Shown piece after piece: positions 4,663-36,375 of a DNA stretch of 64,000 bases (positions are counted from its first letter, which is position 1; every line of letters starts with the position of its first letter). The notes beneath the pieces are model-generated. The model was not told the DNA's origin. It did no database searches and worked only from the letters and a program-made list of their open reading frames with translations. Origin of the DNA: Oscillospiraceae bacterium (GTDB lineage Bacteria > Bacillota > Clostridia > Oscillospirales > Ruminococcaceae); NCBI GenBank assembly GCA_051891935.1, contig JBJFFR010000183.1, positions 8,665 to 72,664 of the forward strand, given 5' to 3'. The position numbers and the translations under genes were made by a program.

Positions 4663-5229
4663 TTGAACATTGATATCAAAAGGCGGAAGGAAAAGATCCG
4701 TGCGATCCTTCGCTGGACAATATATTTTCTGCTGCTTTTTATCGAATATATCATTATGACAACGATGTCGTCCATCCACAGGATGCCGCTTTTTATTGTG
4801 GCGACGGCGATATGTATCGCTGTTTTCGAGGATCCGTTCAACTCTGCGATACTCGGCTGTCTTGCGGGACTGATGCTTGACGCTGCGGAGGGGACGATAG
4901 TCGGTCTGAACGGTGTTATACTTACTATGTGCTGTCTTATGACATCGCTGCTTTTTTATTTTATAATGAGGCGGCATATTGTCAACGTTCTTGCGCTGAC
5001 CGCTGCGACCGCATTTATACAGACGGGTCTTCGATATATTTTTTACTACTCTATATGGGGATATGATGACCGAGGTGTTATATATCTGCGTGAGATAGTG
5101 CCTGTTATGATCTTCACGGTCATAGCTTCGGCGGTGTTTTATCCGCTAATACGCTTCTTGTCGTCGCGGCTCGGAGTTATCAAGGAGACCTACGTTGAGG
5201 AAAAATCCGAAAATATTGTGAGAGAATAA
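4663..5229 (+). CDS. mreD: Rod shape-determining protein MreD
   Basis: TTG start 7 nt after RBS aaggagg. Polytopic 188-aa membrane protein positioned between mreC and PBP2. Confidence 0.7.
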   Translation: MNIDIKRRKEKIRAILRWTIYFLLLFIEYIIMTTMSSIHRMPLFIVATAICIAVFEDPFNSAILGCLAGLMLDAAEGTIVGLNGVILTMCCLMTSLLFYFIMRRHIVNVLALTAATAFIQTGLRYIFYYSIWGYDDRGVIYLREIVPVMIFTVIASAVFYPLIRFLSSRLGVIKETYVEEKSENIVRE

Positions 5230-28917: not shown

Positions 28918-29084
28918 TTAATACTAATAACCATTTGTTCTATGGATAAAGACGGTGGATAGAATACGACCAATCAAGGAAAACGACCGCAGGCAGGCTG
29001 CCGCCTGTCAAGGGAGTTTGACGCAGAGTGGGCGTATTATAGCCGCCGTATTTTATCCATAGGTTAAATGGTTATTAGTATAAA
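28918..29084. repeat. 167-bp imperfect palindrome in a divergent intergenic region
   Basis: Arms of about 51 nt, ttaatactaataaccatttgttctatggataaagacgg... versus ...ccgtattttatccataggttaaatggttattagtataaa, about 80 percent complementary. Confidence 0.7.
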
Positions 29085-33804: not shown

Positions 33805-33850
33805 AAAGATAAGGGGGCTGTTTCGGCAGTCCCTTTTTCTTTAATCCAAC

Positions 33851-33891
33851 AAAAAACAGCACCAAATTTTGCTTTTGGTGCTGAATTTTTT
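33851..33891. terminator. Bidirectional terminator
   Basis: cagcaccaaa / tttggtgctg stem flanked by an A-run and a T-run, between convergent genes. Confidence 0.65.
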
Positions 33892-34135
33892 ATCTTGGAC
33901 TATCATTTTTACCATGTCCGCAAGCAGGACAGACAACATTGTTTCCGCTGCATCTTAAGCCACAGTATTCGCAGTTCCATCTATCGTCATTTTCATCATA
34001 AAGCTTGATAATATGACCGCAGCGCGGACAGACCGAGCCGTTCATCTGACGGTCTTTGTACTTCTTGCCGCAGTAAACACAAGTTATTCCCATAAGGGAT
34101 TCTTGCACTTTTGTTCTTTTTCTGAAGAAAAGCAT
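33890..34135 (-). CDS. Double zinc-ribbon protein (four CxxC pairs)
   Basis: CVYC...CPRC and CEYC...CPAC. RBS ggtgagg overlaps the HEPN stop, and the gap to the HEPN gene is 10 nt. Confidence 0.6.
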   Translation of the reverse strand: MLFFRKRTKVQESLMGITCVYCGKKYKDRQMNGSVCPRCGHIIKLYDENDDRWNCEYCGLRCSGNNVVCPACGHGKNDSPR

Positions 34136-34145
34136 TTATGCTACC

Positions 34146-34589
34146 TCACCTTTTTGTCCGTTTGTGATAGCTGTTGTAATCAAATTTGATGCGTTCGCAT
34201 ACAACATCGACAAGCTCCTGCGTGTCGGTGAGTACGGTGTCGGCAAAATCACGGGTGATATTTGCAGGAATGTCGGCAGGATAGCGTGTTTCAATATAGA
34301 AACGGTTGAGCTGTGTGCTTTTTTCTATCCAGTCGGTGAATTCGCTGTCGAGCATAGCCGCCTGCTTGCAGAGCCATGTCAGGTTGTGACCGTCAAAAAG
34401 ACGATGCGACTTATAAAGCAGGAATGCTTTGAGCGATTTTTCCATAGCCTGCTGGCAGTGGAAAACCACCTGTTCGTATAACCTTTTGTCATCAATAAGA
34501 ACCTTTGCCGAGAGCAGATCCTGATAAGCGTGGTAAAGCCAATCGTAATAACGCTTGCTGTCGGTTTTATGACTGTTGTTTCTGCTCAT
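34146..34589 (-). CDS. HEPN-domain protein
   Basis: HEPN helices (HCQQAMEKSLKAFLLYK), an Rx4H-type motif RLFDGH and RYP near the C-terminus. Length 147 aa. Confidence 0.75.
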   Translation of the reverse strand: MSRNNSHKTDSKRYYDWLYHAYQDLLSAKVLIDDKRLYEQVVFHCQQAMEKSLKAFLLYKSHRLFDGHNLTWLCKQAAMLDSEFTDWIEKSTQLNRFYIETRYPADIPANITRDFADTVLTDTQELVDVVCERIKFDYNSYHKRTKR

Positions 34590-34893
34590 AAAGCTTTACT
34601 CCCTCATTATCTATACGCGAAGCGAATGTGCAGTCATCGTCAAGGCATTCGTTCCATTCAGTGATACAGTAAATGATAACATCGCAGGGCACGGGGCAGT
34701 CGGTCTTGATAAGAATCTCACTTTCAAGTGCGTTTTCGTTATAGGTGTCGGCAACGACAGCGCATATCTTGAATGAGGTAAGCTCCCCCGATGAATTTTG
34801 CTTGCTCGAAACGAGGAAGATCTGGAACGGATCGCAGATCTTTACGATATCGTCGGACATTTTTCTGATGATCGGATCATTGATATCTTTCAT
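34567..34893 (-). CDS. Minimal nucleotidyltransferase (MNT)-like partner with degenerate catalytic motifs
   Basis: Start MKDINDP. Its size, its position and a 23-nt overlap with the HEPN gene fit a HEPN/MNT pair. However, the GS...DxD region reads FLVSSKQNSSGELTSFKICAVV. Confidence 0.5.
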   Translation of the reverse strand: MKDINDPIIRKMSDDIVKICDPFQIFLVSSKQNSSGELTSFKICAVVADTYNENALESEILIKTDCPVPCDVIIYCITEWNECLDDDCTFASRIDNEGVKLYEQKQQS

Positions 34894-34985
34894 TTTAACA
34901 CCTTCTTTTATTATATTAATAATATTATACAACAATATTAACAATAAGTCAAGTTAATTCAAAATTAATTCTATGAAAAAGAAAC

Positions 34986-35199
34986 AAAATTAATTTAATG
35001 CTTAATTCGTAATGCGTAATGCGTAATTAGCTTCGCTTATCTGTCAGAGGTGCACTGTTTAAAGCTTATTGAAATAAAAACTAAAGGTGCTGTCACGAAA
35101 ATCAAAATCGTGACAGCACCTTTGTTTATCCCACAAATTATATCGTAAATGAACAGCGCAACAAATAATTACGCATTACGCATTACGAATTATGCATTA
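34986..35199 (-). mobile_element. 214-bp heptad-armed element, copy B (reverse orientation relative to copy A)
   Basis: Arms at 34986-35019 and 35167-35199. Central hairpin aaaggtgctgtcacga/tcgtgacagcaccttt (35083-35123). Subterminal blocks gcttcgcttatctgt and cgtaaatgaacagcgcaacaaat match copy A. Confidence 0.8.
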
Positions 35200-36375
35200 T
35201 TGCAGGCTTTCTATCGGCATAACGGGGTCAACATCGGCGTCGTAGTCTATGCCGTCTACATCAAAGCCGAAAAGCTCGGAAAAGTCGTGCTGATAGCCTG
35301 CGATATCTGCGCAGCTGTTGATATTTTCCGTGGAGATCTCATCCCAGAGCTTTGATACCTTTTCCTGGATATCGGGGAGCATTTCAAGATCGTCCATGCG
35401 GATCCTGTTCTCGTCATCGGTCGGAACGGGCTTGCCGCTGTAAAGCTTCTGTGCGAAGAGTCGCTGCATCTGCTCGATACAGCCTTCGTGGTTTCCCGAT
35501 TCCTTCATTACCTTAAAGAGGATAGAGATATAGAGCGGAACTATCGGGATAGCGGAGCTTGACTGTGTAACGAGAGCCTTGTTTACGGAAACATAAGCCT
35601 TCACGCTTGTAACGTTGTTGATCATTCCTGCTGTTGCGGCGAGGTGAGCCTTCGCCCTGCCGATAGAGCCGTCGTAATACATCGGATGTGTAAGCTCGGG
35701 TCCGATATAGGAGTAAGCGATCGTCATTGCGTCATCGGTAAGCACCTGTTCACGCTCCATCTGCTGTATCCAGTCGAACCAGTCTTCGCCGCCCATTACC
35801 TTAACGGTGTTGTCGATCTCTTCTTCTGTCGCAGGGTCAAGAGTGATATCGGAAACGGTCATATTTCGCATATCAATTGTCTTGTTGGTGTAGCTGCTCG
35901 AGGTCGTCTTGAGCACGGAGGAAACTGTTGTACCGTCTGCGAGCGTTCTTCTCGGAGCGGCAAGACTGTAGACAACGAGGTCGACTTTGCCGAGGTCTTT
36001 CTTGATAAGGGCGATAACTTCATCCTTGACAGCCTGTGAGAAAGCATCGCCGTTTATCGTCTTGGCATAAAGCCCCTCTTCGTGAGCAAAATGTTCAAAA
36101 GCGGCGGTGTTGTACCAGCCTGCGGAGCCTGTTTTGCTTTCTGTGCCGGGCTTGTCAAAGATAACGCCGATAGTTGCGGCATGGCAGGAAAATGCAGCGG
36201 AGATCCTTGAAGCAAGTCCGTAGCCCATTGACGAGCCGATAACGAGCACCTTCTTTGCGCCTTCGACGGCAGGCTGCGACTTTACATAGTCGATCTGTGC
36301 CTTTACTGCGGCTTTGCAGCCTTCGGGATGTGCGGTTGTGCATATAAATCCTCTTATTTTAGGTTTTACTATCAT
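35197..36375 (-). CDS. fabV: Trans-2-enoyl-CoA/ACP reductase (FabV/Ter family)
   Basis: MIVKPKIRGFICTTAHPEGC N-terminus. Length 392 aa. The stop TAA is the first TAA of the repeat arm. Confidence 0.9.
   Translation of the reverse strand: MIVKPKIRGFICTTAHPEGCKAAVKAQIDYVKSQPAVEGAKKVLVIGSSMGYGLASRISAAFSCHAATIGVIFDKPGTESKTGSAGWYNTAAFEHFAHEEGLYAKTINGDAFSQAVKDEVIALIKKDLGKVDLVVYSLAAPRRTLADGTTVSSVLKTTSSSYTNKTIDMRNMTVSDITLDPATEEEIDNTVKVMGGEDWFDWIQQMEREQVLTDDAMTIAYSYIGPELTHPMYYDGSIGRAKAHLAATAGMINNVTSVKAYVSVNKALVTQSSSAIPIVPLYISILFKVMKESGNHEGCIEQMQRLFAQKLYSGKPVPTDDENRIRMDDLEMLPDIQEKVSKLWDEISTENINSCADIAGYQHDFSELFGFDVDGIDYDADVDPVMPIESLQ

Follow-up and report, generated by a model that had tools for sequence, protein, structure and literature searches.

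A catalytically degenerate minimal nucleotidyltransferase and its HEPN partner: a candidate toxin-antitoxin-derived pair in Oscillospiraceae

What becomes of a HEPN protein when the nucleotidyltransferase encoded beside it has lost its catalytic residues? The question is raised by a stretch of 64,000 nucleotides (nt) from an Oscillospiraceae bacterium (assembly GCA_051891935.1, contig JBJFFR010000183.1, positions 8,665 to 72,664 of the forward strand; hereafter "the window," with positions counted from its first letter). An initial annotation had described a three-gene HEPN operon here, and a reading of the sequence bears out the layout it gave. Three open reading frames (ORFs) lie on the minus strand, encoding a 108-amino-acid (aa) protein resembling a minimal nucleotidyltransferase (MNT; 34567-34893), a 147-aa HEPN protein (34146-34589), and an 81-aa double zinc ribbon with four CxxC pairs (33890-34135). 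The first gene has GAAGGTG before its ATG and overlaps the second by 23 nt, so that the GAGGGAG before the HEPN ATG falls inside the MNT-like gene. The zinc-ribbon ATG follows the HEPN stop by 10 nt, and its ribosome-binding site lies on that stop codon (the TGA within AGGTGAGGT).

Our preferred answer, which we judge to have an even chance of being right, is a lineage-fixed regulatory complex derived from a toxin-antitoxin module, in which a dead MNT controls a HEPN protein of the HEPN-T branch by binding it. The functional unit would be two genes, with the MNT-like protein (hereafter the pseudo-MNT) translationally coupled to the HEPN-T protein, and the module would have its origin in canonical MNT/HEPN-T pairs of the toxin-antitoxin type.

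According to PMC7641770, no predicted toxin-antitoxin modules in prokaryotes are more abundant than pairs of this general kind. The sole mechanism worked out for them needs an active nucleotidyltransferase. In the family described here 80 of 141 classified representatives have lost that chemistry, yet the constraint on them is as tight as that on a housekeeping enzyme. The pair is, therefore, a natural test of whether an MNT can neutralise or regulate a HEPN by binding alone, and of whether PF05168-type HEPNs without the canonical Rx4-6H motif are ribonucleases (RNases) at all. It also illustrates cleanly how a module of the toxin-antitoxin type can become fixed in a lineage. A literature search combining HEPN, nucleotidyltransferase, and pseudoenzyme found no paper on catalytically dead MNT partners.

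The MNT-like partner and its lost motifs

The 108-aa protein is invisible to most routine tools. Neither Pfam nor NCBIfam has a family that matches it, even at E<=1, PADLOC returns nothing meaningful for it, and a comparison with the sequences of the PDB gave zero matches, whether made with the single sequence or the family profile. Its family forms 67 database clusters, all without a Pfam domain, and the few that carry a name from their source are called "hypothetical protein." The fold of its AlphaFold2 (AF2) model, which has a predicted local distance difference test (pLDDT) score of 82.7, is more informative. The best Foldseek matches in the PDB are MntA (6m6u), HI0073 (1no5), and an MNT antitoxin (8xeo), at probabilities of 0.96-0.99.

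Homology could be traced by an exhaustive profile search with a hidden Markov model against 1.84 billion representative proteins (E<=0.001). This returned 223 representatives (50%-identity clusters) and reached canonical MNTs, with motifs such as LFGS...SDIDLCV, at E-values of 1e-12 to 1e-7; the aligned matches form an unbroken series from the pseudo-MNT to those canonical proteins. A direct hhalign comparison of the family with the canonical MNT of the same genome aligned the C-terminal 31 residues only, at a probability of 22%. The Pol-beta-type alpha/beta fold of the model and the homology found by the profile search both place the protein among the MNTs, and a family labelled only "hypothetical protein" now gains a fold and an origin. 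On this predicted structure and these alignments we take it to be a true but catalytically degenerate MNT, as the initial annotation had proposed for the partner of the HEPN protein.

How complete is the loss? Of the 223 representatives, 141 were aligned and sorted by motif state: 80 have no G-S and carry Lys at the second Asp position (hereafter Lys-type), 28 are canonical, and 33 are intermediate. In the window's protein, alignment to canonical relatives places S29-S30 at the G-S position and S40-F41-K42 at the D-x-D position, a register fixed by the Cys that both have after the motif. The initial annotation was, thus, right about the serine pair and the catalytic loss, and mistaken in reading the D-x-D site as F41-K42-I43. 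Where the catalytic signature is hG[GS]x9-13Dh[DE]h, the pseudo-MNT reads V-S29-S30 ... S40-F41-K42-I.

The same picture emerges from 80 loci gathered in one scan of species-representative genomes, comprising metagenome-assembled genomes (MAGs) and isolates of Oscillospiraceae, Ruminococcus, and Huintestinicola; these relatives are MAGs or draft genomes throughout. Residue 29 is either S or T, residue 30 varies, and K31, K42, D71, W80, F90, and A91 are invariant (80/80). The third carboxylate, on strand beta-3, is kept as D71 in P69-x-D71, which aligns with the P[FI]D of canonical relatives, and the whole C-terminal half (P-x-D, EW, SFA, G..LY) is common to active MNTs. A decaying pseudogene is excluded by about 15 invariant residues and by a ratio of nonsynonymous to synonymous substitution (dN/dS) of 0.05-0.07.

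Pol-beta-type nucleotidyltransferases employ a two-metal mechanism that uses the carboxylates of the metal-ligand Asp residues. Because of this chemistry, a protein that has neither the G-S turn nor the two metal-binding Asp residues, and in which an invariant Lys42 takes the place of the second Asp, is presumably unable to AMPylate its HEPN partner. Given the loss of these residues, neutralisation by binding rather than by AMPylation, as suggested in the initial annotation, is the most reasonable inference. The retained C-terminal half would bind the HEPN protein stoichiometrically and so mask or regulate it.

Could the protein instead still be an enzyme, or a nucleotide sensor, working in a type VII-like manner through a re-modelled site made of K31, K42, E57, D71, and D86/D87? 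Several charged residues are indeed invariant in the 80 loci, including D71 and the Lys42 that occupies the second Asp position; intermediates with one Asp kept exist in the wider family, and purifying selection is strong. Against this, every member of the clade has lost the G-S turn along with the two metal-ligand Asp residues, and the failure of any Pfam nucleotidyltransferase model to match, even at the permissive threshold given earlier, points the same way. We consider an enzyme or sensor unlikely and prefer a protein that acts by binding.

The closest known relatives of the locus are the canonical MNT/HEPN-T modules (COG1708 with COG2250; PF01909 or PF18765 with PF05168), which are biochemically uncharacterised and represented by the structures TT1696 (1ufb), ST0689 (1wol), AF0298 (2hsb), and TM0613 (1o3u). 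As in those modules, the MNT gene is the 5' one and overlaps its partner by a short distance, and the C-terminal half of the MNT is homologous. Similarly, the HEPN proteins belong to the same subfamily, with near-identical FHCQQ..EK.LK, GH.L..LCK, and YIETRYPAD blocks. The partner described here differs in having lost G-S and D-x-D, with the invariant Lys in place of an Asp. A tree of 135 representatives, built from 84 columns after the motif columns were removed, was poorly resolved; the Lys-type label is strongly clustered on it (15 changes vs. 52 in shuffles), and the tree speaks neither for nor against a single origin of that type.

Conservation and inheritance of the pair

The two genes travel together. 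The HEPN gene lies directly after the MNT-like gene in all 80 loci, and the overlap is 14-29 nt in 62 of the 68 that could be scored. The dN/dS of 0.05-0.07 applies to both genes and equals that of the neighbouring epimerase. A family census of 301 genomes found a match in 88, with exactly one copy in 87 of these, and presence was all-or-none in each of the 30 genera itemised. The divergent family members that were fetched, 14 in number, all proved to be Lys-type and to have an intact HEPN gene. The flanking synteny (epimerase and CotH genes) extends only to the closest 10 loci; more distant ones often have accD-accA upstream or an amidohydrolase gene directly downstream.

Is the pair, then, a mobile toxin-antitoxin module? 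No mobile-element genes were found among its neighbours, and its guanine-plus-cytosine (GC) content is like theirs. Together with the synteny of the 10 closest loci, these observations exclude a mobile island. In addition, neither the viral contigs of IMG/VR nor phage records held any relatives, and plasmid records held only HEPN relatives of <36% identity, encoded beside annotated nucleotidyltransferases on Bacillus megaplasmids. The patchy, mobile, and often multicopy distribution of toxin-antitoxin modules is not that of the Lys-type pair, and nothing in the data favours a mobile defence or toxin-antitoxin lifestyle for it. The pair is stably and apparently vertically inherited in one Oscillospiraceae clade.

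The canonical relatives behave differently. Whereas the Lys-type pair is usually single-copy and genus-coherent within one bacterial family, they turn up patchily, in 16 of 399 genomes of the class, can be multicopy, and can be decayed: at least 4 of 10 loci have no intact HEPN ORF of >=80 aa. Such HEPN decay is typical of mobile toxin-antitoxin modules, unlike the intact Lys-type pairs. One genome carries a Lys-type pair together with two canonical pairs. Among the decayed canonical loci, the HEPN is shortened to 85-89 aa in L091 and L092, the latter adjoining a recombinase-like gene, and no HEPN ORF of >=80 aa is listed in L089 or L093.

The HEPN protein and its candidate active site

The family assignment of the HEPN protein stands: a PF05168 search matched it at E=1.5e-22 (80.4 bits vs. 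a cut-off of 22), and it is the sole PF05168 protein encoded in the genome. Its sequence relatives of solved structure are 1ufb (TT1696), 1wol (ST0689), and 1o3u (TM0613). The AF2 model (pLDDT 85.4) has helices at residues 10-31, 35-61, (70-80), 82-97, and 113-134, and matches 1ufb, 1wol, 3o10 (the sacsin HEPN domain), and 2hsb (AF0298) by Foldseek at a probability of 1.00 and template modelling (TM) scores of 0.65-0.78. These sequence and model comparisons assign it to the HEPN-T branch (TT1696/AF0298-like) and not to the DUF86/HepT branch of type VII systems.

Whether this protein is an active RNase depends on where one looks for the active site. The initial annotation had pointed to the string RLFDGH as an Rx4H motif. 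The string is present, and it lies elsewhere than the canonical site, which falls where helix 3 ends or where the loop from helix 3 to helix 4 begins (PMC3710099). RLFDGH occupies the insert between helices 2 and 3, and the Arg of the string is poorly conserved: 13 of 79 close homologues do not have it, nor do roughly half of the distant Lys-type pairs or any of the examined HEPN partners of canonical MNTs. The string is, therefore, excluded as a canonical Rx4-6H motif and makes a weak argument for activity. At the canonical site the motif is incomplete: R102 is invariant, but no His follows it at a distance of 4-6 residues; I, P, and A stand at positions +5 to +7, and D106 never varies.

The motif His is often missing from HEPN-T proteins, AF0298 among them, and they have instead a conserved His in the helix-2/helix-3 insert, which could combine with the Arg of the motif and an acidic side chain of helix 2 into an alternative site (PMC3710099). 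The present family has each of these elements in 79 of 79 sequences, namely an insert His (H68), the motif Arg (R102), and a helix-2 Ex3[KR] (E50-x3-K54). H68 falls within DGHN in RLFDGH, which thereby marks the alternative-His region of the protein, and R102 within ETRYPAD in the loop after helix 3 (82-97). The complete set of invariants comprises E50-x3-K54, D66-G67-H68-N69, E100, and R102-Y-P-A-D106 (79/79), with T101 in 77 of 79. The three conserved blocks named above (FHCQQ..EK.LK, GH.L..LCK, and YIETRYPAD) are shared by the HEPN partners of canonical relatives. Activity is, thus, plausible via H68/R102/E50 and not via the Rx4H string, and because E50/K54, H68, and R102 are kept we infer that the protein is probably still an RNase working through this alternative HEPN-T site.

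The opposite view is that neither protein is catalytic, the HEPN-T protein being a nucleotide- or RNA-binding helical scaffold and the pair a non-toxic complex domesticated for housekeeping. It draws on the incomplete Rx4-6H motif, with R102 lacking a His 4-6 residues downstream; on the appearance of the sacsin HEPN domain among the top structural matches, a scaffold role having been proposed for sacsin-type and nucleotidyltransferase-fused HEPNs; and on a pair that is usually single-copy and genus-coherent, under housekeeping-like constraint, in non-mobile surroundings. We doubt it: E50-x3-K54, H68, and R102 are invariant in the 79 sequences and match the active site proposed in PMC3710099, and the same residues are kept in the HEPN partners of canonical, toxin-antitoxin-like MNTs.

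The HEPN protein also differs from those of canonical modules in having extra conserved N- and C-terminal tails. In the close subgroup the C-terminal tail spans residues 131-147 (window 34146-34190) and includes C131 and K135-F136-D137-x-x-S140-Y141-H142-K143, and an N-terminal extension is present as well. Both tails are missing from the HEPN partners of canonical MNTs and from the distant Lys-type pairs.

How does the locus compare with the type VII HepT/MntA systems? Here, too, an MNT-fold gene lies directly upstream of, and overlaps, a HEPN gene, and the best Foldseek matches of the pseudo-MNT are MntA and MNT antitoxins. The pseudo-MNT, however, lacks the catalytic residues that define the type VII antitoxin, and while type VII HEPNs belong to the DUF86/NTase_sub_bind branch, with an RX4HXY motif carrying the AMPylated Tyr, the present HEPN belongs to PF05168 and has no RX4HXY. 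The locus may work like type VII HepT/MntA but, judged by its sequence, is not a member, because it has neither an enzymatic antitoxin nor an RX4HXY acceptor motif, each of which was looked for.

The same genome does encode a canonical overlapping pair of the HI0073/HI0074 kind on another contig (L083:1426-2128; contig C50 of genome G000). Its 107-aa MNT reads LFGSRAR...SDIDLAV (PF18765, E=1.9e-16), and its 138-aa HEPN is of the NTase_sub_bind/HI0074 type with RNILAHTY (PF08780, E=1.7e-26), so that by sequence the genome has a type VII-like module in addition to the degenerate one. An hhalign comparison of our HEPN family with this NTase_sub_bind protein gave no usable alignment.

A further parallel is offered by the fusions of nucleotidyltransferase and HEPN domains (kanamycin nucleotidyltransferase and the GlnD type; PMC3710099), in which a toxin-antitoxin-like MNT-HEPN ancestor likewise saw one partner lose catalysis and acquired a stable cellular function. 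There the HEPN is inactivated and the nucleotidyltransferase active; here the reverse would hold, in two separate proteins.

Several points weigh against control of an active HEPN-T by a dead MNT. That the HEPN is an RNase, that it is toxic, and that the two proteins form a complex are predictions. The Foldseek E-values of the pseudo-MNT are weak (>=6e-3), with TM scores of 0.4-0.6. Invariant charged residues in or near the former active site (K31, K42, E57, D71, D86, and D87) could signal a different chemistry or ligand binding and not inertness. The case for vertical inheritance is built on sampled tallies of MAGs and not on a species tree. Finally, in characterised type VII systems the antitoxin AMPylates the toxin (PMC7641770 and PMC11586414), and binding alone may not be enough here.

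A more specific proposal would have the module domesticated outright, as a single-copy, vertically inherited RNA-processing or regulatory complex of gut Oscillospiraceae. The pseudo-MNT, with Lys42 filling the metal site and pairing with Asp71, would then be a permanent subunit of a His68/Arg102 HEPN-T RNase. We advance this only tentatively.

The zinc-ribbon gene and the surroundings of the pair

Should the zinc-ribbon gene be counted as part of the system? The initial annotation thought that it could be, as a sensor or third component, and made the case depend on co-conservation. Co-transcription in this strain is suggested by the short gap of 10 nt, by a ribosome-binding site that coincides with the HEPN stop, and by the lack of an intervening terminator. 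An intrinsic-terminator-like hairpin with a T-run (33857-33883, minus strand) stands directly 3' of the zinc-ribbon stop; reading on from the putative promoter of the locus, it is the first terminator encountered on the minus strand, with none before the zinc-ribbon gene. That promoter, proposed from its consensus match, is a sigma-70-like TTGACT-17-TATAAT (34924-34952, minus strand; 11 of 12 consensus positions) about 30 nt 5' of the pseudo-MNT start. Because the sole minus-strand terminator comes after the zinc-ribbon gene, co-transcription is plausible, and all three genes probably share a single transcript in this strain. Moreover, the zinc-ribbon gene is under purifying selection where present, and its dN/dS of 0.17-0.21 marks it as a real gene.

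Its distribution, however, tells against a three-component system. The gene occurs in 3 of the 80 related loci (L002, L005, and L006). L001 does not have it, although its pair matches that of the window at 99% and 100% identity; there, and in L004, the 57-nt HEPN-epimerase spacer is taken up by a plain terminator hairpin instead. No CxxC-rich ORF follows the pair in other loci, save one unrelated DUF3795 gene, and among 5.8 billion proteins the zinc-ribbon protein has only 2 clusters, both 98% identical to the window's. It gives weak or borderline matches to zinc-ribbon Pfam families, is encoded by a single-copy gene, and changes faster than the pair (64% vs. 91% identity). The three-gene system is, therefore, refuted on the very ground on which it was proposed to stand, the gene not being co-conserved, and we regard a role as third subunit as extremely improbable. 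The gene is a passenger that varies from strain to strain, a cassette polymorphism that separates even close relatives, and not a component of the system.

On the 5' side, the heptad-armed repeat element reported in the initial annotation can be seen at about 34986-35199, where (TAATGCG)n and (CGCATTA)n arms surround a central terminator hairpin. It sits between the fabV stop and the promoter of the pair, and it borders the locus without being a component of the module.

Some observations on the neighbouring genes may be useful to those annotating related genomes. Fatty-acid synthesis genes tend to lie 5' of the pair in varying arrangements: fabV in the window (35197-36375) and in L001, and accD-accA (PF01039/PF03255) in about 20 loci, with examples among L011-L034 such as L023:2798-3613 and L019:1862-2755. 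These may be the remnant of an ancestral position beside a fab cluster. On the 3' side, 16 loci of L059-L079 (the Huintestinicola group) have an Amidohydro_2 gene (PF04909, E=1.6e-37) of 272-279 aa on the same strand, separated from the HEPN stop by a median of about 2-3 nt (for example, L074:4749-5585); this may be a lineage-specific operon partner.

The HEPN-epimerase spacer itself exists as two alleles, one of 57 nt with a terminator hairpin and the other with the zinc-ribbon gene and its own terminator (window 33805-34145; L001:4749-4805; L004:4752-4800). The distribution of the alleles is out of step with how the flanking genes rank by identity, suggesting either recombination or gains and losses that happened more than once. 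In L005, an extra insert of about 180 nt follows the zinc-ribbon terminator (at about 5005-5190). It has inverted ends, TAATACTAATCTCTGATC ... GATCAGAGATTAGTA, and its terminal 10-mer, TAATACTAAT, is shared with a 167-bp palindrome at 28918-29084 of the window; the insert looks like a small palindromic mobile element.

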